DNA of 64,000 nt, from positions 64,001-128,000 of the forward strand of contig CAWJBB010000030.1 in assembly GCA_963840855.1 (NCBI GenBank), in the 5' to 3' direction. Positions 19,638 to 35,431 of this stretch are shown here, piece by piece. Position 1 is the first letter of the stretch, and the number at the start of each line of letters is the position of its first letter. Under the pieces are notes generated by a model, which did not search any database, was not told where the DNA came from, and was given only the letters and a program-made list of their open reading frames with translations. This DNA is from an uncultured delta proteobacterium. GTDB lineage: Bacteria > Desulfobacterota > Binatia > UBA9968. Both the position numbers and the translations under genes were made by a program.

Positions 19638-20621
19638 TCACGCCGATTCGAGCAGACCGCGTCGCACTAGATCCTGTGCCAACTTCACCTTGTAGACGTT
19701 GTCCTTCAATGGCTTAGCCCCTTCGAGGGCAATGACACCGGCTTGCTGGGCGACGGTGTCGTCGATCTTCTTGCCACGCAGGAAGGATTCGGCTCCTGGC
19801 GCGCGCCAGGGGATCGGCGCGACGCCGCCGAGGACCAGGCGTGCGTCGCGCGCTACGCCGCCGCTGCTTTGGACGACGGTAGCGACGGCGACGATGGCGT
19901 GATCCCAGGCCTGGCGCTCGCGGACTTTATGATAGTAACCTTTGCTACCGGCTTTCGGTGTCGGAACGAAAATCTCTGTGACGATTTCGCCGGTCTTGAG
20001 AACGTTTTCTCGTCTATAGTCCACCGATGGCAGCACGAAAAATTTCTCTAGGGGAATGGCTCTTTCACCCGCTGGCCCGGCGATCTTAATCTGCGCATCC
20101 AGTGCTACCAGCGCCGGGGCGGTATCCGACGGGTGGACAATGTAGCTCGGCCCGCCGCCCAGGATGGCGTGAAAACGGCCGTCGCCGGTCACGGTGTAAC
20201 AGAGCTGGCCGCCTTTTCGCAGGCAGTTGAAGTTTGAAGAGCGAAAATACCAGCAGAAGGGTCGCTGGCAGATGTTGCCGCCGATGGTGCCGGCGTTGCG
20301 AATCTGCGGCGAAGCTGCTTCACCCGCTGCCGTCGAGAGAATCAGCAGCTTATCACGCACGCCCGGATGATCTTCTACATCCGCCAGGGTTGTCAGCGCG
20401 CCGATACGAAAACCGCCGCGCTCCTCTTTGATCGTATTCAAACCGGGAATGGTTTTGAGGTTGATAACATAGTCGGGAGCCAGAACATCGTCTTTCACGA
20501 GCTGTAACGCTTCGCTGCCGCCGCCGACCACCAGGGCCGGCTTTTTTTCCTGATGGAATTTTTGCAGCAGCGCGACCGCCTGACCTACGCTTTTGACATC
20601 GATATTTTCAAATGACTTCAT
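19638..20621 (-). CDS. Xanthine dehydrogenase-family FAD subunit (PaoB/YagS-like) with 4Fe-4S insert
   Basis: GGGS, IGALTTL, ASPQIRNAGTIGGN, CQRPFCWYFR..CLRKGG.LC, HPSDTAPAL, LGGVAPIPWR. Confidence 0.9.
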   Translation of the reverse strand: MKSFENIDVKSVGQAVALLQKFHQEKKPALVVGGGSEALQLVKDDVLAPDYVINLKTIPGLNTIKEERGGFRIGALTTLADVEDHPGVRDKLLILSTAAGEAASPQIRNAGTIGGNICQRPFCWYFRSSNFNCLRKGGQLCYTVTGDGRFHAILGGGPSYIVHPSDTAPALVALDAQIKIAGPAGERAIPLEKFFVLPSVDYRRENVLKTGEIVTEIFVPTPKAGSKGYYHKVRERQAWDHAIVAVATVVQSSGGVARDARLVLGGVAPIPWRAPGAESFLRGKKIDDTVAQQAGVIALEGAKPLKDNVYKVKLAQDLVRRGLLESA

Positions 20622-20636
20622 CGGTTTCTTCCTCCA

Positions 20637-22850
20637 TCAGACCTGGCGCGCCTGCAAGATCTTGTCTGGTGTAATCGGCAACTCTTTGATCCGCCTTCCC
20701 GTGGCGTTGAAGATTGCATTGGCGATGGTCGCCACAGCGGGCGTGATCGGCGGCTCGCCCACTACTTTGCCGCCGAAGGGACCGAAGGGGTCTGGATGCT
20801 CGATAAAGATCACCTCGACCTCGGGCGCTTCCAGATGAGTCGGAACTTTGGCGTCGCGATAGTTGGGGTTGATGGGAATGCCGGTCACGCGGTCGGTGAT
20901 CAACTCCTCGGTAAAAGCCATGCCGATTCCCTGTACAATGCCGCCCTTGATCTGGCTCTCGGCGGCAAGCCGGTTAATGATCGTGCCGGAATCATGGGCC
21001 GCGACGTAGCGCGTAATGCTCACGTGGCCGGTCCAGGTATCGACTTCCACCTCGGCGAAATGCGCCGCGAAGCTTTTGCCTTCCACGTCTTTGAACGACG
21101 GGTTTGTCGTCGCGCGGCCGATGAGTTCACCGGCTCGTGAAACAACGCGCGCCAGTGGAAGCTTGCGTGAGGGCTCGGTCTTGACGAAAACTTCGCTGTT
21201 TCGCAGGTCCAATTCTTCCGCTTTAGCTTTTAATTGCCCGGCCGCAAGAGCAAAAATTTGCCGCCGCGCATCTTCGGCGGCGGCGATTACCGCCGGTCCG
21301 GTAAAAGGGGTCGTTCGGCTACCCGACTCGCCGACGGAATAAGGCGTCACATCGGTGTCACCGTTGGTAACCTGAAACTGATTGAGCGGAACACCGAGGG
21401 CCTCCGCGGCGATGATCGCCATGGTGGACTTGGCTCCGGTGCCGATGTCTGTGACACCGACTAAGAGATGCGCCGTGCCGTCGGGATTGACACGAATGGT
21501 CGCGGCCCCAAGGCCGGGCCGGAAAGGATATCCCCCCAGCGCCATACCGATGCCGTGCTTCTTAGCATCGCCCATGGCGCCCGGTTTATGCCATTTTTCT
21601 TGCCAGCCGATGCGCTTCGAACCTTCGACGATGCACTCGTCTAAATGATTTGAGGTGAATGGAATCTTGCTCTTGTACTTTTGAATCCGGTTCTTCGTGA
21701 ACATGTCGAGCGGGTTGAGACCCATCTCGTGGGCGATGTGATCGAGAAATGACGCAAAGCCGAAAACCGACTGCGGGTACGCCGGCGCGCGGTAGTTGGC
21801 GCCCACCACCGTGTTGGTGTGCACCGGTTTTATGTGCTTCTTGAAATTGGCGATCTGATAAAAATCGGTGCCGCTTAGGTTGCCGCTGGACTTCCGATAG
21901 GCGCCGACGTTGGTGACCGCGTCGAGGGAAACGGCCGTGATAGTGCCGTCTTTTTTCACGCCGATTTTGTATTTTTGCTCGGATGCCCAGCGGCCATGCA
22001 TGCCGATGTAGTCATCCTCTCGGGTGAACTCCAGTTTCACCGGCTGGTTGCAAATCCTGGCAAGCGCCGCCGCCATGTAATCGTAATCCTGCGCCTGGTT
22101 TTTGTTGCCGAAGCCGCCGCCCATATATTTGCACACGATGCGCACTCTGCTGAGCGGCAAATTAAAATCTTTAGCGATGTCCGTACGCGCATTGGAAACT
22201 CCCTGGGTGGAGGCGTACACGGTCAATTTGCCGGAATCCCATTTGGCGATGCTGACGCGCCGCTCGAGCTGCGCGTTGTTGGTATGCTTGGTAATGTAGG
22301 TATCTTCGAAAACCCGGTCCGCATCCTTGAAGCCCTGGTCGAGGTCGCCCCACGATTCTTCAATGGGGGCGCTGAAGTTGCCCTTGCCGACGGATAGATT
22401 GCCGTCGGTGGATATCTTCGGCGCGTCGGGCTTGAGCGCTTCATTAGCATCGAACACATGGGGCAACTTTTCATATTTGACTGCGATCAGCGCCAGCGCC
22501 TGCTCGGCGATATGCCGGTCCGTTGCCGCCACCGCCGCCACCGCGTCGCCGACGAAACGAACCGGGTTGTTAAAAATGAAGCGCGGGTGCGTGTGGCCGC
22601 CGCTGGACCAGGGAATCATCGCGTTGCCATGATGAATCACTGCCTTCACCCCCGGCAGTTTTTCGGCCTTGGATGCATCGATGCCGATGATTTTGGCGTG
22701 CGGGTGCGGGCTGCGCAAAACGCGCGCGTAGAGCATGCCCGGCAGCTGAATGTCGCCTGTATATTGCGCCTGACCGGTGACGCGTTCGTAGGCGTCGATA
22801 CGCGGGATTTTTTTGCCGACGACGGAAAATTCTTTTTGTGCCTGTGCCAT
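20637..22850 (-). CDS. Xanthine dehydrogenase-family molybdopterin subunit (PaoC/YagR-like)
   Basis: RIDAYERVTGQAQYTGD, LRSPHPHA, MGGGFGNK, DIGTG, GSRT, HDSG..IN, SQIKGGIVQGIG, GGKVVGEP, NAIFNATG. Confidence 0.92.
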   Translation of the reverse strand: MAQAQKEFSVVGKKIPRIDAYERVTGQAQYTGDIQLPGMLYARVLRSPHPHAKIIGIDASKAEKLPGVKAVIHHGNAMIPWSSGGHTHPRFIFNNPVRFVGDAVAAVAATDRHIAEQALALIAVKYEKLPHVFDANEALKPDAPKISTDGNLSVGKGNFSAPIEESWGDLDQGFKDADRVFEDTYITKHTNNAQLERRVSIAKWDSGKLTVYASTQGVSNARTDIAKDFNLPLSRVRIVCKYMGGGFGNKNQAQDYDYMAAALARICNQPVKLEFTREDDYIGMHGRWASEQKYKIGVKKDGTITAVSLDAVTNVGAYRKSSGNLSGTDFYQIANFKKHIKPVHTNTVVGANYRAPAYPQSVFGFASFLDHIAHEMGLNPLDMFTKNRIQKYKSKIPFTSNHLDECIVEGSKRIGWQEKWHKPGAMGDAKKHGIGMALGGYPFRPGLGAATIRVNPDGTAHLLVGVTDIGTGAKSTMAIIAAEALGVPLNQFQVTNGDTDVTPYSVGESGSRTTPFTGPAVIAAAEDARRQIFALAAGQLKAKAEELDLRNSEVFVKTEPSRKLPLARVVSRAGELIGRATTNPSFKDVEGKSFAAHFAEVEVDTWTGHVSITRYVAAHDSGTIINRLAAESQIKGGIVQGIGMAFTEELITDRVTGIPINPNYRDAKVPTHLEAPEVEVIFIEHPDPFGPFGGKVVGEPPITPAVATIANAIFNATGRRIKELPITPDKILQARQV

Positions 22851-22862
22851 GACGACCTCCTG

Positions 22863-23480
22863 TTAGCGAGCCTTCGCCGCGGCGAGTACCGCCGCGACCT
22901 CGCGGTTGTAGTTGCCACAGCGGCAAAGATTGCCCGATAGCCCGCGCCGCACTTCGGCTTCCGTCGGATTGGGCTTCTTCAGCAGCAATGCCTTGCCCGA
23001 CATGATCTGCCCCGGCGTGCAAAAGCCGCACTGCGGGCCGTCATGTTCGATAAATGCCTCCTGGACCGGATCGAGCTTGTCGCCCTTGGCCAGGCCCTCG
23101 ATGGTGAGAATCTCTTTGCCCTCCATCCACACCGCCAGCTGGCTGCACGAATACAGGTTGCGGCCGTTGATCATCACGGTGCAAGCGCCGCACTCGCCGC
23201 GGTCACAGCCGATCTTGGTGCCGGTGAGGCCGAGCTGGTCGCGCAGCACTTCGGCAAGCGTATTTCGGTGCTCGACTTCGACTTTATAATTCTTACCGTT
23301 GACTTTTAGGCTGAGAGTCGACCTCCCCCGCGCCGTCCCCACCGCTTCTTGGGTATAAGCCTCGACCTCGTCGGGCTTGACTAACCCCGTAGAGACCACG
23401 GCGGTGCCGATGGCCCCGCCGCCGATGCCTTTGAGGAAATCGCGCCGCGATACCCCTTTGCCATTTCTTTCTGCTTCCAT
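22863..23480 (-). CDS. 2x[2Fe-2S] subunit with a Tat signal (PaoA/YagT-like)
   Basis: SRRDFLK twin-arginine motif; GTKIGCDRGECGACTV, QCGFCTPGQI, GNLCRCG. Confidence 0.92.
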   Translation of the reverse strand: MEAERNGKGVSRRDFLKGIGGGAIGTAVVSTGLVKPDEVEAYTQEAVGTARGRSTLSLKVNGKNYKVEVEHRNTLAEVLRDQLGLTGTKIGCDRGECGACTVMINGRNLYSCSQLAVWMEGKEILTIEGLAKGDKLDPVQEAFIEHDGPQCGFCTPGQIMSGKALLLKKPNPTEAEVRRGLSGNLCRCGNYNREVAAVLAAAKAR

Positions 23481-24935: not shown

Positions 24936-25715
24936 TCAAGCTTCCGGTGAGAATTTTTGGTGGGGTTCTATAAGCGGCGACTCCCACTGGTAGCATCGAA
25001 TCGGGCGCGGATCGCCCTGTACTACTAGTGCCCCCTGGTATCCGACACAAAGAGTAAGCTCGGTTAGAGACCAGTCGGGCACGCTCGCATTAATCCGTAC
25101 CTGTTGATCAGCAGCCAGGGTAATTACAACTTCATCGAGCTTGCCCGACAAGCCCGTACCCTTAGCCTTTAAGAACGCTTCTTTGCTGGTCCAACATTTG
25201 AAGAAAGCTTCGCGCTGAAGCGTTTGCGGCAACTCGCATAGCGCCGCGACTTCTTTGGTGGTAAAGAACCGCCGGGCAAGCTCGTCGAAAGAAAATTGCC
25301 TCTTGACGAATTCCACATCGACGCCCACCGCTCTCTGCCGAGCGACGGCAACCAATGCGACCTCGTGGGAGTGGGAGAGATTGAACTCCAAACCGCCTGC
25401 GGCTTGTGGCGGAGCGAGCGCGGGTTTGCCTTGAGGTCCTGAGACAAAGTGAATCTCATCCGCGGCAACTCGCAGGTATTTAGCCAATAGCGAGCGCAAA
25501 GCGACATGGGCGGCGATATAAAGCCGGCGGTCTTTAACGAACTTGAACCGCGCGGCTCGCTCTTTCTCCTCTTCCGATAGGGACGTGGCCAAAAGGTCAG
25601 GGGGAATATCTTTCGCGCCAGCATTAACCAACCAGACATGAACTTCGTCGTCGTTCAGTTCGACGGCGTTAGGTGGCAAAGGCCAAAGGTTATCGGAACA
25701 TTCCGCGGCGGCCAC
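24936..25715 (-). CDS. Sfp-type 4'-phosphopantetheinyl transferase
   Basis: EVHVW, LSEEEKERAARF, GKP, FNLSHS, VGVDVE, FFKCWTSKEAFLKAKGTGL. Confidence 0.92.
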   Translation of the reverse strand: MAAAECSDNLWPLPPNAVELNDDEVHVWLVNAGAKDIPPDLLATSLSEEEKERAARFKFVKDRRLYIAAHVALRSLLAKYLRVAADEIHFVSGPQGKPALAPPQAAGGLEFNLSHSHEVALVAVARQRAVGVDVEFVKRQFSFDELARRFFTTKEVAALCELPQTLQREAFFKCWTSKEAFLKAKGTGLSGKLDEVVITLAADQQVRINASVPDWSLTELTLCVGYQGALVVQGDPRPIRCYQWESPLIEPHQKFSPEA

Positions 25716-26202: not shown

Positions 26203-27375
26203 TCAGGCCTTCATGTCGAGCAGGTGCATCGAAGACGGCGCGCCCACCGCCAGCGCCGCGAATTTTTCCTGCTTCTCTTGCGACAATTCCCTGAGCGGCT
26301 TTGCCGCCAACAGCACATCGCGGTAGCCGAGCGCCATCAGCATTTCACGGAAGCCCGGCAACTCTTGCCGGATCAACCGTAGAGATTCCTCGCGATCTAG
26401 ATAGAACACCGCGCGTAATTCCTTGGCGTCGATATGGGCGTCGATGCGCGTGCGCCCGAAGTTTTCCAAATCGAGGAGAAAGAGCAGGGAGTAGCGGCCT
26501 TTTTCCCTGGCTTGATTGCCCGCCGGACCGTGGCCGTCCTGTTCCACCGCCAGCGCCGCGGTGGAGAACCCGGCGCCGGTGAAAAAAGGAATCTGCATTC
26601 GGAAAGCGCCGCCGTCCAGTTGCGCCACCAGGTTAACGGCTTGCTGGGTCTCAAGATTGTCGAGCTGGGCGCTGAGAGCGTTCTGCAGACCGGCAGAAAA
26701 CGCTCTGGCTTTAGCCTCTTGCAGCGCGGAAAGCAGTAAACCTTTAAGATCGTGATCAGGGATTTCCGGCAACTGCTCGGGATCATGCGCCGCCGCATCG
26801 AAGAGTTTGGCCTCGTAAAAAAGCCCGCCGTCCCGGGCCAGAACTTCGAGCTTCTCCGGAGTGGGCGGTGTACCGCCGGCCAAAAGCGTTGCAATCGAAT
26901 CGCGCAGTTTCGCCAGCTTGTCTGGGGTCGGGGCGGTGTCAGTCCGTGGATCGACGTAGGCGGCCAATTCGAATTGCAAAGAATCCATCAGTTCACCTGA
27001 GTCGGCGTGGGCCGGCAGACGGGTGCGGAGTAACCGCGCTGCTTCGGATTCAATGGTGGGTTCGAGATCGGTGATATGGAGCACGACGTTGGGCTGGAGC
27101 TGCTCTACGCGCAAGCGCACCTGTTGCCCGGCGCCAAGTCCGCCGGGGCCGTCGGCTTCAATCAATGTAGCGCCAATTTTCACCAGCAACCGTCCGCCGT
27201 CCAACTCTTCCAGGACGAGGGCGTCAAGTTCCTGTCCGAGTTCCAGCGGCGGCAACGCGCCGGTTGCCCCATGTTGGGAAACCAGATTGCGCGGCACCCG
27301 GTCGTTGTTGGCCGAGGTTATCTCCTGCCCTTGGACGAGCGGCGCGGAGACGGATTTGGGCGCGTCGATTCTCAC
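26203..27375 (-). CDS. FliK-like (hook-length control) domain protein
   Basis: GLFYEAKL, DLKGLL, QIPF, C-terminal LDLENFG.TRIDA..L...FY; 1-nt gap to the FlhB-C gene. Confidence 0.7.
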   Translation of the reverse strand: MRIDAPKSVSAPLVQGQEITSANNDRVPRNLVSQHGATGALPPLELGQELDALVLEELDGGRLLVKIGATLIEADGPGGLGAGQQVRLRVEQLQPNVVLHITDLEPTIESEAARLLRTRLPAHADSGELMDSLQFELAAYVDPRTDTAPTPDKLAKLRDSIATLLAGGTPPTPEKLEVLARDGGLFYEAKLFDAAAHDPEQLPEIPDHDLKGLLLSALQEAKARAFSAGLQNALSAQLDNLETQQAVNLVAQLDGGAFRMQIPFFTGAGFSTAALAVEQDGHGPAGNQAREKGRYSLLFLLDLENFGRTRIDAHIDAKELRAVFYLDREESLRLIRQELPGFREMLMALGYRDVLLAAKPLRELSQEKQEKFAALAVGAPSSMHLLDMKA

Positions 27376-27881: not shown

Positions 27882-29411
27882 CTAATTAGCCAGCAACGTC
27901 TGGGCGTCACGGATCGTCTTGCCGGATGACGTGCGCGGCAGCGACTCGCGTATGACAATTCGATCGGGCACTTTGAAGTTAGCCAGATTGGAGCGCAGAA
28001 AAGTCAGCAGTTCTTTCTCAGCGACACTGGCGCCCGACCGCGGCACGACGGCGGCGCCGATCACTTGACCGCGTTTCGGATCAGGGATCGCGAAAACGAT
28101 CGTCTCCTGGACGCCGGGATAAGTGTAAATCAGATTCTCAACCTCCGCCGGATAGACGTTGAGGCCGCCGGTGATAATCATGTCGTCGCGCCGCCCCAGA
28201 TGATAATAATAGCCATCGGCCTCGCCCTTGCCGACATCCCCGGTATGGAGCCATTCGCCGTGGATGCGCTCCGCGGTGGCCGCGGCCTTGCGAAAGTATC
28301 CTTTCATCACGTGCGGGCCGCGAGTGATGATCTCGCCTGGTTCGCCCACGGGAACTTCGTTGCCATTCTCGTCGACGATCCTCACCTCCACTCCGGGAAC
28401 CGCCCGTCCAATGCTGCCCATCTTGGTCACCGCCCGTTCGGGTTCAACCAGCGTGATTAGCGGCGAAGTCTCGGTAAGCCCGTACCCCTGTATGACTTTG
28501 ATATGGGGCTGTGCCTGCTTGAAAGCTTGCAGCAGCGGCAGCGGCACGCTGGTGCCCATCATAGCCGCGATTTTGACGCTGCTGGTATCGTAGTCGGCAA
28601 GGTTTTTTACGCCCAGTATCAATTGAAAAATAATCGGCACGCCTTCGAAAACCGTCACACGGTGTTTCTGAATCCCCTCGAGCAGCGTGATGGGGTTGAA
28701 CTGATCGAAGATCACGAGCGTATAGCCTTTTTCGGCGACTTCGTTGCACACGATGGGTCCAACGATATGTGACATGGGCAGAATGCAGCCGCGCATGGTA
28801 TCGGAATCGGTGACACCCATGTCGCCCATCACCGCCGGGTATTGCGTCAGGTTGTGATAGCTCAAGACCACGCCCTTGGGCTCGCCGGTGGTGCCCGAGG
28901 TGTAAAGAATCAGCGCGTCGTCGCCCGGCTTCAGCTTCGGTGGACTTAAGGAGGTCGCCGGCGCCGCAAATTTTGCCTCGAAGCTCCGTTCACCGGCAGC
29001 GCCGACGATCCACAGGGGGATCCGCGCCATCGCTTTGAACAGCTCCTCGACTTCGGGTAGTAACTGGTTATGCACCACCAAAAGTTTGAGATCGGCATCC
29101 GTCAAGACGTTTTGCAGCTCGATTCCTTTGAGCCGCGCATCGAGGATGACGGTGACGGCGCCGATCTTTTGCGTGGCGTAGTAGCTCAGGGGAATGGCCG
29201 TGGAATTCGGCAAGAGAACGCCCACCCGATCGCCTTGGCGGATGCCCTCCTGTCGCAGATGGCCGGCCAATGCGTGCACGCGCTGATTGAGCGCGGCAAA
29301 AGTAAGCTCTTCTTCCTTGGCGATGATCGCCGTCTTGTTCGGCTTGCGCTCAGCCGTCTTGTCTAACAACTCCGCCGCGTAAAAGCCTACTGAATGGGTA
29401 TCGTTTGCCAT
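27882..29411 (-). CDS. Acyl-CoA synthetase / class I adenylate-forming enzyme
   Basis: LYTSGTTGEPKG, QGYGLTE, GEIITRGPHVMKGY, HTGD, GGLNVYPAEVE, LPRTSSGK. Confidence 0.93.
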   Translation of the reverse strand: MANDTHSVGFYAAELLDKTAERKPNKTAIIAKEEELTFAALNQRVHALAGHLRQEGIRQGDRVGVLLPNSTAIPLSYYATQKIGAVTVILDARLKGIELQNVLTDADLKLLVVHNQLLPEVEELFKAMARIPLWIVGAAGERSFEAKFAAPATSLSPPKLKPGDDALILYTSGTTGEPKGVVLSYHNLTQYPAVMGDMGVTDSDTMRGCILPMSHIVGPIVCNEVAEKGYTLVIFDQFNPITLLEGIQKHRVTVFEGVPIIFQLILGVKNLADYDTSSVKIAAMMGTSVPLPLLQAFKQAQPHIKVIQGYGLTETSPLITLVEPERAVTKMGSIGRAVPGVEVRIVDENGNEVPVGEPGEIITRGPHVMKGYFRKAAATAERIHGEWLHTGDVGKGEADGYYYHLGRRDDMIITGGLNVYPAEVENLIYTYPGVQETIVFAIPDPKRGQVIGAAVVPRSGASVAEKELLTFLRSNLANFKVPDRIVIRESLPRTSSGKTIRDAQTLLAN

Positions 29412-30382
29412 AGCGCAAATGCCCTTTGAAATGGTTTATACCAGCGCGAAAGTTGCGCCAGTTCGCCGCGTTTGAGTTTCAATTTTCCCTGCTGAGTGGC
29501 GAGAAACGGATCGATGCGCGCGCGAAATACCGCTTCCCACCACTCAACTTTGCCGCTGATCATGAATTCGCCGCCAGCGCTCGGTAGAAGCTCGGTGATC
29601 TCACCATTCAAATATCGCACCGTCCAGGCGTCATTAGTTTCTTCGAGATGGAGCGTCAACGACGTCGTGAGCGCCGTGTCGGCGCCATGGGCGCGAAATT
29701 GGGAATCTTGATTCGCCGAGTCGACCAGCGCCTGCATGTGTTCCTTGGAGAATAGCGCGAAACGCTCACCCGACGCCGTCGCGGCGGGTTGTTCCGGCCT
29801 TGCGCTTGTCGATGCCGCGGCGGCAATCTCCGCTTTCTCGATAAAGAATTGACACTGCACCGCTTCTTCCAGCAAATCGGTGTAGAGGAACGCCTCCTGG
29901 AAATTCTTGCCGATGGCGACCGTGCCATGACCCTTGATGATCACAACTGGATTGTACCTGAGTGCCTCCACTACTTCTTCGGGTTTGGTCACCGTCGGCG
30001 TGTCCTGCGCAATGACGGACACCTTGCCGATGGTATATTTTTCTTCGTAACTCACGGGCGCGAAGCTGTCGTGGGTGAGAGAAAACGCCAGCACCATCGG
30101 CGGGTGGACATGGACGATCGCTTGGGCATCCGTGCCGTCGTAAACCGCCAAGTGCATCGGTGTCTCGCTCGACGCGCGCAGGCCCTTGCGCGCCGGCTTG
30201 CCATCCGATTTCAGCCTGACCAAATCTTTGGGCGCGAGAAAACCCAGTGGCGCGTGCTGTCCGGTGATCAGAAAATCATTCTTACCGACGCGGCAACTCA
30301 AGTTACCGCCCCAGCCGCTGATGAGCCGCCGCTCGAAGAGCAGCTTGCCCCAGCGAATCATTTCGCTTTCCGGCTTGGCCAT
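29387..30382 (-). CDS. Class II aldolase/adducin domain fused to an SCP2 (sterol-carrier-like) domain
   Basis: GNLS, SSETPMH, VHVHP, GHG in the N-domain; C-domain FMISG...W..VF...IDP..A..QGKLKL..G. Confidence 0.85.
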   Translation of the reverse strand: MAKPESEMIRWGKLLFERRLISGWGGNLSCRVGKNDFLITGQHAPLGFLAPKDLVRLKSDGKPARKGLRASSETPMHLAVYDGTDAQAIVHVHPPMVLAFSLTHDSFAPVSYEEKYTIGKVSVIAQDTPTVTKPEEVVEALRYNPVVIIKGHGTVAIGKNFQEAFLYTDLLEEAVQCQFFIEKAEIAAAASTSARPEQPAATASGERFALFSKEHMQALVDSANQDSQFRAHGADTALTTSLTLHLEETNDAWTVRYLNGEITELLPSAGGEFMISGKVEWWEAVFRARIDPFLATQQGKLKLKRGELAQLSRWYKPFQRAFALWQTIPIQ

Positions 30383-30395
30383 TCACTAACCCTGA

Positions 30396-31913
30396 CTAAT
30401 CTTTGAACAATCCCCAGGGAACTACTTCCTCCTCAACGGACCGAACGGCAACGCCGGCGGGGCAGATCTTTTTACCCATGAAGGTCGAAACGTCGCTATC
30501 ACGCGGCGAATCGCTGCGTTCGTCGCCGTTGAAGAGTTCGATGGGCACACCATGCAGACGCGCTAGCTGTACGGCTAGGAGCGATCCGCAGATCCCTGTC
30601 GGCCCTGCTTCGCCCAGGCTACCGTAGAAAAGGCAAAGCTTGAGAATCTCCCCCTGGGCGAATAGCGCACCCATCATGTTGTCCGAAATTAAAGTCGTAG
30701 GCACATTGCGCTCGAGCAGATCCCGCGCGACTACCCGGGCGCCCCAGAGCTGTGGCCGCATCTCGGGGACGAGAACGCTCTCAGCCCGATCTGCCTTTAA
30801 CGCGCTAAGCAAGAATGAATATTGACTCTTTGGCGGAACGCCGTAGAGCAAAATATATTTGCCGCTCGCCTCGCTCTGATTGTCATCGGCTTCAACCTTA
30901 CCCTGATACTTCCGGCAAAAAGATTCCGGCGTGTAGAGATCGTCGAAGCCGACTAAGTGCGTGATCAACGCCGCCGGCGTCATATCGAACGATGGGTAAC
31001 GCGCGCTAAGCCCGCTTAGCCCTCCGGCAACCAGCGGTTGTCCGTCAAAAATCAGCAACTCATGAGCCGGGCGCTCCTCGATACGCACGTCGGTACCGCG
31101 TTCAAGCGAGCGTGGATCTTGTACCAGAGCGTGGAAAGGCACGCCGTACTCCTTTGCCAGCCGCGCGATGGGGTAGGTGCCAACCTTGTTGATGATGTCG
31201 CCATTGCGCGCCGTACGATCCGCGCCGACGATCACGCCGTTGACTTCGCCGTTGGCCATCACTTGCGCGATCGCACAATCGGGGATCGACGACACTGGCA
31301 CGCCCGCTTGTGCGAGTTCCCAAGCGGTCAACCGCGTGCCTTGTAAGTAAGGCCGCGTCTCGGTGGCGATCACGCTGAATTCTTTCCCAAGCTCTTTGCA
31401 ATGCCGCGCCACCGCGACCAATTCGCCGCTCACGTTACAGTGCGTCAGCACGCGGGCCGGATTTGGTAAGATTGCGGCTGCGCGCTTGGCCCGCGCGTGG
31501 CGCCCGCGCACGATCTGCTGGGCCAACTCGAGCGCCTGGCGCGCGATGGTTTCGCCGGCGCCCGCGTCCTGCGGCAACTTCTTACACCATTCTTCGAAGT
31601 AAGAACCCAGGCCCTGGAAATCGAAAGTTGGCCGGGCCGCGCAAAACTGCTCCGTCATCTGGGACAGGCTCCGGCTGAGCGGCGCGGCGTCCACGCCAGA
31701 GTAATTTTGCGCCACCAAGGCGCCGCTGTAAAGAAAGGTCAGTACCTGGCCGAAGGCACGGGTCTTCATGTCGCGCACGGCATCCAGTGCCTGGGCGACT
31801 TCGCTAACATGAATGTACTCAATCTTCTCGGGAACTTGAATTTCGTCGAGAATTTCAAAGCCCCGCCCGCGCCACAGAACCGGCTCGAACAGGGGGCTTT
31901 GAGCGGCGCTCAT
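30396..31913 (-). CDS. Methylthioribose-1-phosphate isomerase (MtnA)-like protein with a duplicated C-terminal domain
   Basis: ILDE..P, RPT, THCN, ETRPYLQGTRLTAWEL, VGADR..NGD..NKVGTY, IEERP, FDMTP; an extra ~150 aa repeats the Rossmann domain. Confidence 0.85.
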   Translation of the reverse strand: MSAAQSPLFEPVLWRGRGFEILDEIQVPEKIEYIHVSEVAQALDAVRDMKTRAFGQVLTFLYSGALVAQNYSGVDAAPLSRSLSQMTEQFCAARPTFDFQGLGSYFEEWCKKLPQDAGAGETIARQALELAQQIVRGRHARAKRAAAILPNPARVLTHCNVSGELVAVARHCKELGKEFSVIATETRPYLQGTRLTAWELAQAGVPVSSIPDCAIAQVMANGEVNGVIVGADRTARNGDIINKVGTYPIARLAKEYGVPFHALVQDPRSLERGTDVRIEERPAHELLIFDGQPLVAGGLSGLSARYPSFDMTPAALITHLVGFDDLYTPESFCRKYQGKVEADDNQSEASGKYILLYGVPPKSQYSFLLSALKADRAESVLVPEMRPQLWGARVVARDLLERNVPTTLISDNMMGALFAQGEILKLCLFYGSLGEAGPTGICGSLLAVQLARLHGVPIELFNGDERSDSPRDSDVSTFMGKKICPAGVAVRSVEEEVVPWGLFKD

Positions 31914-31925
31914 AACTTCAGTAGG

Positions 31926-32000
31926 CGTTCAAGTCGTTCAAATAGTTCCAATCGTTCAAAACGTTTTGAACGACTTGAACGGCTTGAACGTTTTGAACGG
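31926..32000. repeat. Inverted array of 9-nt units (4x GTTCAA-type then 4x TTGAAC-type) forming a long hairpin
   Basis: cgttcaagt cgttcaaat agttccaat cgttcaaaac | gttttgaacg acttgaacg gcttgaacg ttttgaacg. Confidence 0.85.
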
Positions 32001-32082
32001 TGTTTGGTAGCCCGCTCACTACGAGTTTCATTCCCGCATCCTCACTCTGTCATGCGTTTAGCTCGCGCATGAATAAACCCAG

Positions 32083-32817
32083 TTAGAGATATTGCAGCGC
32101 CCTGCGCGCTACTTCGATGGTTTTCTGCTCCGCTGCGAGAAAGACCGGATCGCGAAAGCCGAATTTACCATGTAGACATTCATCGGAAACCGCGAGCACC
32201 GCGCCGGCTTTCTTGCCTCGCACCTGGGCGACGGTCAGAAACGTCGACGTGACCATGTCGATGCTCGAAACATGCTGCTCGTTCAGTTGCCGGATCAATT
32301 CCGGCGTCTCTTGAAATAAGGCGTCGGTGGTGAAGATCCAACCGAGATGGCAGCGTACGCCGAGACTCTCCGCCGCCTGTTTCAAGGCGTTGACAATATC
32401 AGGGTGAGCCAGGGTCGAGAAGCTTTCCGCGACGTAATAACGCGACGTACCATCGCCGCGCAGCGCGCCGGTGACGATTACCAAATCGCCGATTACAACG
32501 TACTCTTGCAACGAGCCGCAGCTACCGATGCGGATCAGCGACTCTGCTCCGGCGCCGCATAGAATCTCCGTGGTGATTGCCGTGTCGGGAGCGTAGCGGC
32601 CGCCGTTGCCGACTGTTACCCGTTTTCCATCCAGGTTCCCGGTATGCATTTCATAGTCTAAAAACGTGAAGTTCCTTTGCGGATTGTCCACGGTTTTCAA
32701 AATTAGATCGCTGCGTTCCTTAGGACCGGGAATCAACGCGTATGGACCAAGTGAGTCCTGTTTGAGCCCCAGCATATTTAACATGCGCTGCGCTGTAAAA
32801 TGAGGTTCCTTTAGCAT
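32083..32817 (-). CDS. Nucleoside phosphorylase (PNP/UDP superfamily), variant active site
   Basis: ALIPG..R, IRIGSCGSL, GDLVIVTGALRGDGTSRYY, TTDALFQE, IDMV in place of VEME, LAVSD; ATG 32817. Confidence 0.85.
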   Translation of the reverse strand: MLKEPHFTAQRMLNMLGLKQDSLGPYALIPGPKERSDLILKTVDNPQRNFTFLDYEMHTGNLDGKRVTVGNGGRYAPDTAITTEILCGAGAESLIRIGSCGSLQEYVVIGDLVIVTGALRGDGTSRYYVAESFSTLAHPDIVNALKQAAESLGVRCHLGWIFTTDALFQETPELIRQLNEQHVSSIDMVTSTFLTVAQVRGKKAGAVLAVSDECLHGKFGFRDPVFLAAEQKTIEVARRALQYL

Positions 32818-32819
32818 GA

Positions 32820-34045
32820 TTAGAGGGCCTGAACGGCGAACTCGAGCAAGTCTTGGGTCGGTAGGCCGAGTTCTTGGCAATCGTTGAAGCTGCGCTGGCA
32901 GAGCGCGCTCGAAGCCAGTAATAATTCAGCGCCGCTCCGCTTGGCTTCCTGCAATCGGTCCGCGGCACTCCATTGGGCCAATTCCGGATCGGCCTCGGGG
33001 ACCCCACCACCGCCGCCGCAACACCAGGCCCAGCGGCGGTTTCGTCCCATCTCGACCAGTTTGACGCCAGGAATCGCGCGGATGATCTCTCGCGGCGGAT
33101 CGTAAACACCGCAGCCCCTGCCGAGGTGACAAGAGTCATGGTAGGTTACCGTCATGCTCACTGCTTTAGTGAAGCTAACGCGCCCCGCGCGCAGGAGATT
33201 TGCGACATGCTCGACGCCGTGAATGATTTCGGCACCCAACTCCGGCTGCTTGGCATGTTCGCGCCAAGCGCGCAGGCAACTACCGCAGGCGACGACTATA
33301 TTTTTGACGCCCGATTGCTTTGATCGTCGCAATATTGTCTTTCTGCAACCGGTCATATTCACGGCGAAAGCCGAGATCATGGGCAAAAAGACCGCAACAC
33401 TTTTCATCGGCGCCGAGAATCGCGAAGTCGTCGCCGGCCCGTTGCATAAGCCGCGCCAACGCCACGGCGCCGCCGCGCCCGCTCGGCCGGTCGGCCGAAC
33501 AACCGGCGAACAGCAAAGTCTTGCGCGGTTGCAGAACCAAGTTTCTTTAATCCCAACCCCTCAGCCCACCCGCCGCGCAACGCTTTGATCTGGCCCCAGG
33601 GATTGTCGTGTTGGTTGAGCCCTTCGTAATGCGAACGGTGCGCTTCGATGGGTCCGTCTTTTTCCGTGATCTCCTCGCGCATGGCGACGGTGATTTCCCA
33701 GGGCCCGTAGCCATCGTCGCGCACGCCGCATAGCTCCTGGCACATGAGACAGTTGGTGCAGGCGTAAATGACCTCTTTGAGTTCCGGCGTGATCGGATCA
33801 AGGCCATGAAAGACGCGCTGGGCCATGAGCCAACGTGACTTCGGCGTATGGCGCTGAAAGCGGTAAAACTCGTAGGGCGGACACTTTTCTTTGGGCCCGG
33901 GAAGGTCCTCCATCGGATTGGCCGGACCATGGCCGTAGCATGACCCGCACAGAACGCAGCCCGCGCTGCGCTCTTCGAGCCCTTTGGCATAAAGCCATCT
34001 CTTGACTCGTTCGAGACCTATCGGTTTCTTGTCTTCAGTTTTCAC
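32820..34045 (-). CDS. (Fe-S)-binding oxidoreductase, HdrD/GlcF/GlpC-like with two CCG domains; frameshifts near 33520 and 33325
   Basis: CVLCGSC..CP and CTNCLMCQELC; HDNPWG; FAGC, EKCCG, CGSC; TYHDSCHLGR, YDPPR, WCCGGGGG spread over three overlapping ORFs. Confidence 0.85.
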
Positions 34046-34062
34046 GATGCTACAGCAAGAAT

Positions 34063-34078
34063 AGTTAATGTGTTAACT
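34063..34078. promoter_or_regulatory. Palindromic operator, probable MarR site
   Basis: AGTTAA-tgtg-TTAACT, located between a TATAAA -10 box (minus strand, about 34078-34083) and the start codon at 34045. Confidence 0.6.
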
Positions 34079-34124
34079 TTATAACCTAAAAACATCTGCT
34101 CAACAAACATCGCCAAGGGATATT

Positions 34125-34625
34125 TCAGGAGTCTTGTTTGAGCTTGCGTAGGAGCGCGGAGAGTTCTTTTTGCTGCGCCTTGTCGAGGTTAGTGAAAATC
34201 CCGGAAATGCTTTTTTCAAATAGCGGGATGGCATTCTTAAAAAGCTTAGCGCCTTTGTCGGTTAACACCACATGCACGACGCGGCGGTCATGCTCATCGC
34301 GTTCGCGCAAAACCAGCTTTTTCTCTGCCAAGCGGTCGACGATGCCGGTCAAGTTGCTCACCGTCACCATCATTTTCGCGCCAATTTCTCCGAATGGAAG
34401 GCGGCCGGCATAGCCGATGGTCGCGAGCACGTAAAACTGCGGTGGAGTAAGACCCTGCTTTTCCAGATCAGCTTCCAACTTTTTGTGCGATTGCAGATTG
34501 AAGCGCAGAAAGCGTACCCATAAACTGGTGGTATAGGACGAAAAGAAGGGCCGCTTGTAAACTACCACGGCGCTCACTCTATTCGCGCCGTCGGGAAAAA
34601 TCAACTCGGTCTTTCTCACTTTCAC
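34125..34625 (-). CDS. MarR-family transcriptional regulator (true start probably near 34568-34577)
   Basis: GLTPPQFYVL, SNLTGIVDRL..KKLV.R....DRR...V.LT.KG. Confidence 0.92.
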   Translation of the reverse strand: MKVRKTELIFPDGANRVSAVVVYKRPFFSSYTTSLWVRFLRFNLQSHKKLEADLEKQGLTPPQFYVLATIGYAGRLPFGEIGAKMMVTVSNLTGIVDRLAEKKLVLRERDEHDRRVVHVVLTDKGAKLFKNAIPLFEKSISGIFTNLDKAQQKELSALLRKLKQDS

Positions 34626-34708
34626 TCGTAGTCGAGCGGTCGATTCAAGTTTGCAAGCGTCTTACCACGGTGTTACCTGAAATTATTTCTGGCCGTGAGG
34701 AGCGAAAC

Positions 34709-35431
34709 ATGAAATTACATATTCTCGGCTGCGGCGACGCCTTCGGCAGCGGCGGGCGCAATCACAGCGGTTATCTCGTCGAGGCCGACCAGCGGATTTT
34801 TCTTTTGGACTGTGGTCCGACGACGCTGCCGGCTATGAAGCGGGCAGGTTTCGATCCGCTCGGCCTCGATGCGATCTTTCTAAGCCATCTCCACGGCGAC
34901 CACTTCGGCGGTATTCCCTTTTTCTTTGTCGACTACCTATATCAGCGCTCGCGCAGCCAGCCGCTGCACATCGCTGGCCCCGCCGGCACTGAGGAAAAAG
35001 TCAGCGATCTCTTCCGGCTAATGTACGGCGCAAGAGACTTGCCACCGGTGGAATTTCACCTCTTGGAGCCGGAAAAGCTTGCGCTGGTCGCGGGCATTGA
35101 GGTTTTTCCCTTCCGCGTGCCGCATCAGATGAGCGATATCTCCTTGGCGCTCAAGGCCAGCTACGGCGGAAAGCAAATTCTGTTCTCCGGCGACTCGGCC
35201 TGGACGGAGCGCTTCATTAACGAGGCCCGCGGCGTGGATTTGTTTCTCTGCGAGTGCTCGTTTTACGATCAGGGCGCCGGCAATCACATCCGCTATCTCA
35301 CGTTAAGGGAGAATCTACCGCGGCTTGAATGCAAGCGTCTCATCCTGACTCACTTGGGGGAAGAAATGCTCGCCCGCCGAAATGAATTGGCAGTGGTCTG
35401 CGCTGAGGATGGGATGGTGATCAATCTCTAA
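34709..35431 (+). CDS. MBL-fold metallohydrolase (RNase BN/Z-like)
   Basis: LGCGDAFGSGGR, LLDCG, SHLHGDHFGG, FSGDS, FLCEC, LTHLG. Confidence 0.9.
   Translation: MKLHILGCGDAFGSGGRNHSGYLVEADQRIFLLDCGPTTLPAMKRAGFDPLGLDAIFLSHLHGDHFGGIPFFFVDYLYQRSRSQPLHIAGPAGTEEKVSDLFRLMYGARDLPPVEFHLLEPEKLALVAGIEVFPFRVPHQMSDISLALKASYGGKQILFSGDSAWTERFINEARGVDLFLCECSFYDQGAGNHIRYLTLRENLPRLECKRLILTHLGEEMLARRNELAVVCAEDGMVINL

Follow-up and report, generated by a model that had tools for sequence, protein, structure and literature searches.

A 64,000-nt stretch of DNA from an uncultured delta proteobacterium (Binatia, UBA9968; assembly GCA_963840855.1, contig CAWJBB010000030.1, positions 64,001-128,000 of the forward strand), hereafter called the window, contains at positions 27882-34625 six genes that all lie on the minus strand. 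According to Pfam and NCBIfam assignments, these genes encode, in this order, a MarR-family repressor, an iron-sulphur (Fe-S) protein with CCG domains, a nucleoside phosphorylase, a long MtnA-like isomerase, a class II aldolase and an acyl-CoA ligase, and the gene of a metallo-beta-lactamase (MBL) fold hydrolase is divergent from that of MarR. Judging from the sequences, the best reading of the operon is that it is a MarR-repressed, specialised paralogue set of the dihydroxyacetone phosphate (DHAP) shunt. A tentative but quite plausible proposal is that it serves a specialised route of the DHAP-shunt type for a 5'-substituted, probably lipophilic, adenosine-type nucleoside, that this route is tied to a B12-binding radical S-adenosylmethionine (SAM) enzyme, and that it ends in an acyl-CoA. 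The sequences show the enzyme families, the catalytic residues that have been kept, an SCP2 fold in the aldolase, a conserved gene order and the link to the radical SAM enzyme. We infer every reaction of the route and its direction, as well as what the substrate is and that it is lipophilic.

A first-pass annotation of the stretch had likened the phosphorylase, the MtnA-like isomerase and the class II aldolase to the phosphorylase variant of the DHAP shunt, and they do match it in both families and order (PMC6079011, in its accessible part). The known DHAP shunt or Drd systems consist of MtnP-MtnA-Ald2 in Rhodospirillum rubrum and E. coli and of DrdK/DrdI/DrdA in Bacillus thuringiensis (accessible parts of PMC6079011 and PMC12632272). 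The window resembles these systems in having adjacent genes for a phosphorylase, for an MtnA-family isomerase in which the Cys and Asp are kept and for a class II metal aldolase. In addition, as in Bacillus, the operon trio are paralogues of housekeeping methionine-salvage enzymes that are encoded elsewhere (PMC6079011, same part). The source genome carries a canonical MtnA (441.6 bits, above the cut-off) on another contig and a canonical MTAP (319.6 bits, above the cut-off) on contig C49, and a search of this genome found no MtnN. The enzymes of the operon must therefore be additional paralogues that have diverged from them. As the annotation had also stated, all three core enzymes are atypical, each of them scoring below the NCBIfam equivalog cut-offs.

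The phosphorylase (32083-32817, minus strand; 244 aa; Pfam PNP_UDP_1, E 5e-34) belongs to the hexameric DeoD/Udp class. It stays below all NCBIfam cut-offs, reaching 133 bits on the uridine phosphorylase model (TIGR01718, cut-off 280) and 91.6 bits on that of DeoD (cut-off 230). Uridine phosphorylase, the best NCBIfam match, was ruled out by an alignment with E. coli Udp and DeoD, which revealed that the Udp-specific insert is absent from the family of this phosphorylase and that the Asp of the DeoD VSD(H) motif and the N-terminal His are kept. None of its 13 NCBIfam matches at E <= 0.01 is the MTAP family, and it is no orthologue of HpnG or of futalosine hydrolase (21.9 bits on the HpnG model TIGR03468, cut-off 187, and 18.8 bits, respectively). 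By sequence, the enzyme is classed as a DeoD-like, purine-type phosphorylase that is neither an MTAP nor an HpnG. In this respect the operon differs from the DHAP shunt, the first step of which is taken by MTAP or by a nucleosidase plus a kinase.

The isomerase (30396-31913, minus strand; 505 aa; IF-2B/MtnA, E 9e-55) is a long, MtnA-like, putative sugar-1-phosphate isomerase. Its scores were 247 bits on the MtnA subfamily model PRK05720 (cut-off 271), 220 bits on TIGR00512 (cut-off 279) and 114 bits on the model of ribose-1,5-bisphosphate isomerase. Residues 1 to about 330 make up the catalytic part, which, when aligned with the canonical MtnA of the same genome, shows the catalytic Cys (HCN) and Asp (GADR) to be kept. 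A second copy of the MtnA C-domain spans residues from about 345 to 505, and this C-terminal part is matched by Pfam IF-2B with an E value of 8e-8. The extra domain, about 160 residues long, lacks both catalytic residues, and from its sequence it appears to be a catalytically dead duplicate. In the distant loci described below, the dead domain has its own open reading frame (ORF), which encodes about 155 aa and is placed between those of the isomerase and the aldolase. Moreover, a deletion of seven residues directly after the catalytic Cys is common to all of the module isomerases. This deletion and the dead duplicate set the isomerase apart from the DHAP shunt.

The aldolase (29387-30382, minus strand; 331 aa; Pfam Aldolase_II, E 2e-38) consists of a class II, metal-dependent aldolase domain (residues 1 to about 185) and an SCP2 lipid-binding domain (about 207-331). 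The best NCBIfam model was the one named 'aldolase', PRK08660 (137 bits, cut-off 203), and other aldolase models gave 82 and 80 bits. MtnB reached 59 bits (cut-off 137; E 3.5e-16), and the haloarchaeal ribulose-1-phosphate aldolase 64.7 bits (cut-off 300). The motifs SSET, HVH and GHG are readable in the sequence, and we take them, after E. coli FucA, to be the phosphate, acid/base and metal-ligand motifs. The presence of an SCP2 domain, noted in the first-pass annotation, is borne out by homologues and by fold comparison. The window aldolase's own Pfam SCP2 match is sub-threshold (E 0.039), and 12 of 14 aligned members of its family match Pfam SCP2, the best of them with an E value of 2e-10. 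The AlphaFold2 model of the domain has a pLDDT of 89. In Foldseek its top matches were the SCP2 structures 1wfr and 2cx7 of T. thermophilus (E 2e-10 to 3e-9, TM 0.73-0.84), UbiJ-SCP2 and the C-domains of alkylsulfatases, and the SCP2 of MFE-2 matched as well. The C-terminus is thus modelled as an SCP2 fold, for which lipid binding is predicted. An SCP2 domain that is joined to, or works with, an enzyme acting on a hydrophobic substrate is also found in the peroxisomal SCPx and MFE-2, the bacterial alkylsulfatases SdsA1 and Pisa1, and UbiJ. A profile search of the SCP2 subfamily returned 73 representatives at E <= 1e-10 among 1.84 billion, and among the best 150 rows of that search 24 had the fused architecture of 318-342 aa, 23 of them at E <= 1e-10. 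On this evidence the aldolase-SCP2 fusion appears to be rare. The name under which it is currently annotated is 'L-fuculose-phosphate aldolase'.

The last gene encodes an AMP-forming acyl-CoA ligase of the medium/long-chain type (27882-29411, minus strand; 509 aa; Pfam AMP-binding, E 4e-88, and AMP-binding_C, E 3e-18). Its best NCBIfam match is the long-chain-fatty-acid-CoA ligase PRK06187 (440 bits against a cut-off of 476), and its nearest PDB sequences are the feruloyl/fatty-acyl-CoA synthetase 8wev/8weu, FadD5 and FadD13. A named acetyl-CoA synthetase comes only 49th among its PDB sequence matches (E 3e-43). The aldolase and ligase genes overlap by 25 nt, and the arrangement suggests that the ligase is translationally coupled to the aldolase. 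The other spacings are also narrow at two places, with a gap of 2 nt between the CCG gene and the phosphorylase and of 13 nt between the isomerase and the aldolase. The SCP2 fusion and the coupled ligase, like the control by MarR and the HdrD-like Fe-S protein in this family, distinguish the operon from the DHAP shunt.

The genes co-occur in related genomes. The whole operon was checked in L001-L006 and L032, which are loci of Binatia from the same family, and in L035, which comes from a sister lineage (genome G434). The source genome is referred to as G000. The full operon was present in L002-L006 and L032, and L001 was cut by a contig end, with protein identities of 57-97%. L035 has kept MarR, the phosphorylase, the long MtnA (51% identity), the aldolase and the ligase, and the Fe-S gene is absent from it. 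The ligase follows the aldolase in all eight of these loci. In a sample of the class that comprised 151 genomes, the aldolase fusion was found in all nine genomes of the family, the source genome included, and in no other family. A further family of the same order has no MtnA; what it keeps, next to AddAB genes, is the phosphorylase and an aldolase without the fusion.

The fusion also occurs in more distant loci. A full-length aldolase-SCP2 fusion was present in 15 of the 401 genomes of the phylum that were sampled (the source genome counted among them), and the identity outside the family was 29-37%. Twelve distant loci were fetched, and eight of them contain a module of phosphorylase, MtnA, a small MtnA-C-like protein and aldolase-SCP2. 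The neighbours in these eight loci were counted with tblastn and Pfam. A gene for a B12-binding radical SAM enzyme, a constant partner that the annotation had not mentioned, adjoins the module in seven, and the eighth has a remnant of 72 aa. An aldehyde dehydrogenase gene comes right after the aldolase in five of the eight, and a full-length AMP-ligase gene was likewise found in five, with three in tandem in one locus. Genes of the lipid-export type were frequent, namely an MMPL transporter (six loci), a LolA-like gene (seven) and a DUF1302 gene (six). One distant locus adds a type II polyketide synthase-like ketosynthase, cyclases, a ketoreductase and a phosphopantetheinyl transferase (PPTase). 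The tie to one B12-binding radical SAM family, together with the aldehyde dehydrogenase and lipid-export genes, is a further difference from the DHAP shunt.

The radical SAM orthologue of Binatia is not linked to the operon, as it lies on contig C10 (39706-41184) in the source genome, yet it co-occurs with the operon. The C10 copy is 38.5% identical over its full length to the module-linked enzyme of the distant locus L022, and the next paralogue is 25% identical. The source genome has several other radical SAM enzymes, and the module is linked to one particular family. In the sample of 151 genomes, seven of the eight other family members and G434 encode a full-length orthologue of the enzyme on C10 (43-85% identity), and the rest yielded a single match of 28%. 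No C10-type orthologue was found in those of the 151 genomes that keep only the phosphorylase and the aldolase. The co-occurrence in Binatia agrees with the physical linkage in distant relatives. The models nearest to the partner enzyme are BchE and HpnJ, both far below their cut-offs, and a search of PDB sequences gave weak matches only, to AprD4, CysS and TokK.

Some neighbours of these radical SAM genes may be recorded here. On C10 (L033:9707-15293, equal to C10:39706-45292), the radical SAM gene is followed by genes for a short-chain dehydrogenase/reductase, a FAD_binding_4 oxidase, a haem-oxygenase-like iron enzyme and a fragment of an O-methyltransferase. These neighbours were considered as a fixed part of the pathway and rejected, being kept in L039 and L042 and not in L040 and L041. 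In three unrelated loci (L023:6030-6998, L027:5074-5988 and L040:10954-12015), an Amidohydro_2 protein is encoded beside the B12-binding radical SAM gene; this family includes reversible decarboxylases of aromatic acids. In L040, a tripartite ATP-independent periplasmic (TRAP) transporter comes after the radical SAM gene. A cluster of DUF1302, DUF1329-LolA-like, BNR (Ycf48-like) and MMPL genes, which are the same export-type genes as flank the module in distant relatives, is present on contig C12 of the source genome (L034:7942-14362) and is unlinked to the operon here. The BNR gene in this cluster is seemingly split into two ORFs, which may be another assembly indel.

In the proposed route, the DeoD-like phosphorylase would strip the purine base from a 5'-substituted adenosine-type nucleoside and leave a sugar 1-phosphate, which the remodelled MtnA-like isomerase would convert to a ketose 1-phosphate. 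The class II aldolase would then split this product into DHAP and an aldehyde containing C4' and C5' together with the 5' substituent, and the fused SCP2 domain would grip the hydrophobic part of the aldolase substrate. The aldehyde would be oxidised to an acid, a step for which an aldehyde dehydrogenase is encoded next to the aldolase in distant relatives, and the acyl-CoA ligase would activate the acid. The annotation had suggested this passage from aldehyde to acid to acyl-CoA with the Fe-S/CCG protein as the oxidiser. The passage itself gains from the distant modules, with their aldehyde dehydrogenase after the aldolase and their AMP-ligases, and the role of the ligase is supported because these two kinds of gene encode the sequence from aldehyde through acid to thioester there. 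The assignment of the oxidation to the Fe-S/CCG protein, on the other hand, is not supported, as this protein is family-specific, is absent from L035 and the distant modules, and heads the operon rather than following the aldolase. The substrate would most likely be made by, or in the pathway of, the B12-binding radical SAM enzyme, the one on C10 in the source genome. We infer that it is probably hydrophobic from the SCP2 fold, the long-chain, FadD- or feruloyl-like ligase and the lipid-export genes in the distant clusters.

A bolder form of this proposal, which we regard as rather doubtful, is that the radical SAM enzyme joins a 5'-deoxyadenosyl group, from SAM or from adenosylcobalamin, to a hydrophobic acceptor and that the module removes the base and three ribose carbons, the latter as DHAP. 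The net result would be a two-carbon (carboxymethyl) extension delivered as an acyl-CoA, and the trimming part would have become a separate MarR operon in this Binatia family. If true, such a transfer with subsequent trimming would give cells a previously undescribed means of making starter acids for lipids or polyketides. We know of no adenosylating activity in the B12-binding class of radical SAM enzymes. That the module hides new radical SAM chemistry is, in our view, a small but realistic chance.

Several observations weigh against the lipophilic nucleoside route. The operon contains no aldehyde dehydrogenase gene. The aldolase of L035 has only 197 aa and no SCP2 domain, so the SCP2 domain is dispensable in at least one lineage. 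Among the four fetched distant loci that do not have the module, two (L021 and L024) encode aldolase-SCP2 with no phosphorylase or MtnA within 10 kb, and the other two are short contigs. A family genome that is 96% complete, G404, gave no radical SAM match, and the co-occurrence in Binatia rests on about two lineages, related genomes being non-independent. The phosphorylase keeps the N-terminal His, which in the E. coli enzymes DeoD and Udp we take to contact the 5'-OH of the ribose, and this would suit a nucleoside of the ordinary kind. In addition, the adjacency of the radical SAM gene is also predicted by plain disposal of by-products, because all radical SAM enzymes, to our knowledge, release 5'-deoxyadenosine.

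That the operon disposes of by-products of its partner radical SAM enzyme, 5'-deoxyadenosine and perhaps 5'-methylthioadenosine, is possible, and we do not think it probable. The route would run from 5'-deoxyadenosine through 5-deoxyribose 1-phosphate and 5-deoxyribulose 1-phosphate to DHAP and acetaldehyde, and from the latter through acetate to acetyl-CoA. The same three enzyme types do exactly this in B. thuringiensis and others, phosphorylase-type clusters included (PMC6079011, accessible part). An aldehyde dehydrogenase and a CoA ligase would complete the salvage of acetaldehyde, and both the seven distant loci with an adjoining radical SAM gene and the sister operon without SCP2 speak for such a function. 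However, plain salvage of 5'-methylthioadenosine or 5'-deoxyadenosine is less fitting, because the genome already has a canonical MTAP and MtnA for housekeeping, the phosphorylase is not of the MTAP type, the module is linked to one radical SAM family though the genome has several, the ligase resembles ligases of long-chain or aromatic acids and not acetyl-CoA synthetase, an SCP2 fusion would be purposeless for acetaldehyde, and lipid-export genes are co-clustered in distant relatives. Another alternative, which seems improbable to us, is the catabolism of ordinary, possibly exogenous, purine nucleosides in a way that bypasses the pentose phosphate pathway. Ribose 1-phosphate from the nucleoside would be converted to ribulose 1-phosphate and this to DHAP and glycolaldehyde; the GlcF-like Fe-S/CCG protein would help to oxidise glycolaldehyde to glycolate, and activation would follow. 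A DeoD-like phosphorylase with the N-terminal His, the weak match of the aldolase to the haloarchaeal ribulose-1-phosphate aldolase (64.7 against 300 bits), the weak GlcF match of the C-terminal part of the CCG protein (E 0.0016) and the control by MarR, which suits an inducible catabolic operon, are all in line with this scenario, and halophilic archaea do have a pathway that ends in a ribulose-1-phosphate aldolase (PMC9700705, accessible part). Nevertheless, the isomerase scores higher on the MtnA model (247 bits) than on that of ribose-1,5-bisphosphate isomerase (114 bits), the operon contains no partner of the GlcD/E type, and the CCG gene is missing from L035 and the distant modules. Nor would this scenario account for the SCP2 domain, the link to the radical SAM enzyme or the lipid-export neighbours.

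Another candidate substrate is a hopanoid. The source genome has a hopanoid cluster on C40 (G000 C40:216122-222125; L012, L017, L019) where squalene-hopene cyclase (809 bits) and HpnH (544 bits) are encoded together with an HpnG-like protein (183 bits against a cut-off of 187). To judge by these genes, the organism in all likelihood makes adenosylhopane, and extended hopanoids should likewise be expected. In Binatia only, adenosylhopane or phosphoribosylhopane made by way of HpnH might be taken by the operon to a C32 hopanoid aldehyde, an acid and a CoA ester. Adenosylhopane is a known purine nucleoside of very hydrophobic character, and a homologue of purine nucleoside phosphorylase (PNP) cleaves it (PMC13459092, accessible part), and an SCP2 domain suits a triterpenoid tail. 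Despite the presence of all three genes together on C40, this scenario appears very unlikely. The operon is not near the hopanoid genes, its phosphorylase reaches only 21.9 bits on the HpnG model, and the partner that follows its distribution is the B12-binding radical SAM enzyme and not HpnH. Furthermore, five of the distant genomes with the module have no match to squalene-hopene cyclase and no HpnH above the cut-off, and adenosylhopane was rejected on these grounds as the substrate of the family as a whole. We hold it to be just as far-fetched that the 'aldolase' is a dehydratase of the MtnB type and the operon a variant of methionine salvage. MtnB belongs to the same Aldolase_II family and has the metal and phosphate sites in common with it, and the MtnB model does match the window protein (E 3.5e-16); the sequence does not separate the two activities. 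However, the MtnB score of 59 bits (cut-off 137) is lower than those of the aldolase models (137, 82 and 80), no gene for an enolase-phosphatase or a dioxygenase lies nearby, and the aldehyde dehydrogenase after the aldolase in distant relatives fits an aldehyde product. What probability remains falls to something other than these five readings.

The preferred reading, in which a lipophilic adenosine-type nucleoside is trimmed by a DHAP-shunt-type trio, has a counterpart in the HpnH/HpnG system of adenosylhopane and the MqnE/MqnB system of aminofutalosine, where a PNP-superfamily enzyme acts on a 5'-hydrophobic nucleoside made by a radical SAM enzyme, as proposed here (PMC13459092, accessible part). 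These two systems are the only known precedent for such a 'greasy nucleoside'. They differ from the operon in that neither has an isomerase and an aldolase to remove three ribose carbons, and the partner radical SAM enzyme here differs from HpnH and MqnE in its B12-binding domain. In its accessible part, a 2026 review of lipid-modifying radical SAM enzymes names only HpnH and HpnG in this connection (PMC13459092), and the accessible part of a preprint on the 'mlp gene cluster' merely names Ald2, MtnK and MtnA in a legend. Our literature searches, with subscription journals outside their coverage, returned no description of the module, of the long MtnA or of an SCP2 domain fused to a class II aldolase.

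If a lipophilic adenosyl adduct is the substrate, the DHAP-shunt trio would have been recruited from waste disposal to the building or degradation of a lipid-like molecule, and a new reaction would be indicated for the B12-binding radical SAM family. The nearest database contigs are mostly labelled as metagenome-assembled genomes of Candidatus Binatia, and metagenome runs of several studies, on soils and sediments, contain near-identical sequence. Because of these hosts and habitats, the product could be a soil lipid of unknown origin. Even on a conservative reading, the MtnA-like isomerases of the module form a subfamily of their own, marked by a partner domain that is a pseudo-enzyme, and the aldolase-SCP2 fusion is a rare one.

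The second gene of the operon (32820-34045, minus strand) encodes, by Pfam, NCBIfam and comparison with relatives, an Fe-S protein of the HdrD/GlpC type with an N-terminal 4Fe-4S dicluster and two CCG domains. The annotation had not noticed that its frame is broken twice in this assembly. A three-frame translation and a DNA alignment with L002-L004 revealed that the gene is spread over three frames by two 1-base insertions, at about 33521-33524 and at 33318. Its orthologue is intact, with 407 aa, in the five relatives L002-L006, and that of L004 matches Pfam CCG (E 2.5e-28, two stretches) and Fer4_8. No specific NCBIfam equivalog is reached by the protein. We compared the window with contigs of four public soil metagenome runs from three studies. 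None of the four has the extra base at 33318, and the one at 33521/33524 is missing from all three runs that cover the site; the fourth, run X3, lacks a contig at 33548-33679. Other genes appear to be split in the same assembly, namely the one for the BNR protein of C12 and, on C10, ORFs that overlap. Because of these split genes and the runs without the extra bases, the double frameshift is most likely an assembly error or private to the strain. The sole PDB sequence relative of the protein is 9ojn, an 'iron-sulfur-binding reductase'. The gene is confined to one family of Binatia, and the distant modules have no CCG gene save one weak partial match about 4 kb past the ligase in L022. In the source genome and in two relatives, the radical SAM gene of the C10 type has a neighbour that encodes a GlcD-like FAD_binding_4 protein. 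GlcD-like proteins partner CCG subunits of the GlcF type, and as a lead only, this protein could be the partner of the GlcF-like CCG protein of the operon.

The first gene (34125-34625, minus strand) encodes the MarR-family repressor (166 aa; Pfam MarR PF01047, E 1e-14), which is 72-78% identical to its counterparts in L002-L006 and L032 and 72% identical to that in L035. Sequence reading and comparison of the loci point to a promoter-like region with a putative MarR operator at 34063-34103 on the minus strand. It comprises a -35-like TTGAGC (34098-34103), a -10-like TATAAA (34078-34083) and, right after the latter, the inverted repeat AGTTAA-CACA-TTAACT (34063-34078), which lies 17 nt ahead of the GTG start of the Fe-S gene. 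The palindrome before the first enzyme gene, along with the six co-oriented genes and their spacings, had been reported in the first-pass annotation, and all of these are present in the window as described. At the same place, L002-L006 and L032 have TTGACA, a spacer of 15-18 nt, a TATAAA-like -10 (TATAAA, TATAGA or TATACA) and an inverted repeat centred on TTAA, which is degenerate in L005. In L035 the inverted repeat is found ahead of the phosphorylase gene, and the -10 is unclear. Overall, the TTAA-centred repeat overlaps or follows the -10 in seven or eight of the eight loci compared, depending on the degenerate copy of L005. This conserved arrangement of promoter and operator fits repression by MarR. 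A generic scan of the window for promoters and terminators added nothing and missed the promoter at 34063-34103, because its rule demands a T at position 6 of the -10. At 34084-34103 the window differs from its relatives in having TTGAGC and a spacer of only 14 nt, and the contig of run X1 departs from the window at 34097. Therefore, there may be an assembly indel in the promoter region too.

The divergent gene next to MarR (34670-35431, plus strand) encodes an MBL-fold hydrolase (Pfam Lactamase_B_2, E 1e-15) that resembles RNase Z and cyclic-nucleotide phosphodiesterases. It reached 91 bits on the NCBIfam model of cyclic nucleotide-degrading phosphodiesterase, the cut-off of which is 400, and its nearest PDB sequences are BA1088, 6kns and Apyc1. 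The gene adjoins MarR in L002-L006, is about 2 kb off in L032 and is absent from L035. It is conceivable that the hydrolase supplies the nucleoside from a nucleotide or phosphodiester. An MBL hydrolase gene was also observed near the phosphorylase-aldolase pair in the family without MtnA (L036, L037).

Between the phosphorylase and the isomerase there is a gap of 169 nt (31914-32082), in which lies a palindromic repeat element built of GTTCAA heptads and their inverse (31926-31998, no strand assigned). A blastn search found at least 40 partial copies of this repeat across many contigs of the genome. The element is absent from L001, which is a 97%-identical relative, and from L004, and by these comparisons it appears to be a strain-specific insertion similar to repetitive extragenic palindromes or miniature inverted-repeat transposable elements. 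The gap has a predicted hairpin of -57.9 kcal/mol, which could attenuate or stabilise the operon transcript.

Two genes downstream of the ligase were considered as members of the operon and rejected. An Sfp/HetI-type PPTase (24936-25715) comes after the ligase in no more than L002, L004 and the window, where one more gene lies in between, and it was not found in the fetched flanks of L005, L006, L032 and L035. A FliK-like ORF (26203-27375) is common to the window and L001 only. The other genes that flank the operon in the window, which encode a molybdopterin dehydrogenase, a DnaB-like protein, an M48 protease, a Lon-like protease and acyl-CoA dehydrogenases, are not conserved with it. The molybdopterin dehydrogenase (19638-23480), for which the same was observed in the relatives examined, has three subunits, belongs to the xanthine dehydrogenase/aldehyde oxidase family and is separated from the ligase by about 4.4 kb; aldehydes could be among the compounds that it oxidises.

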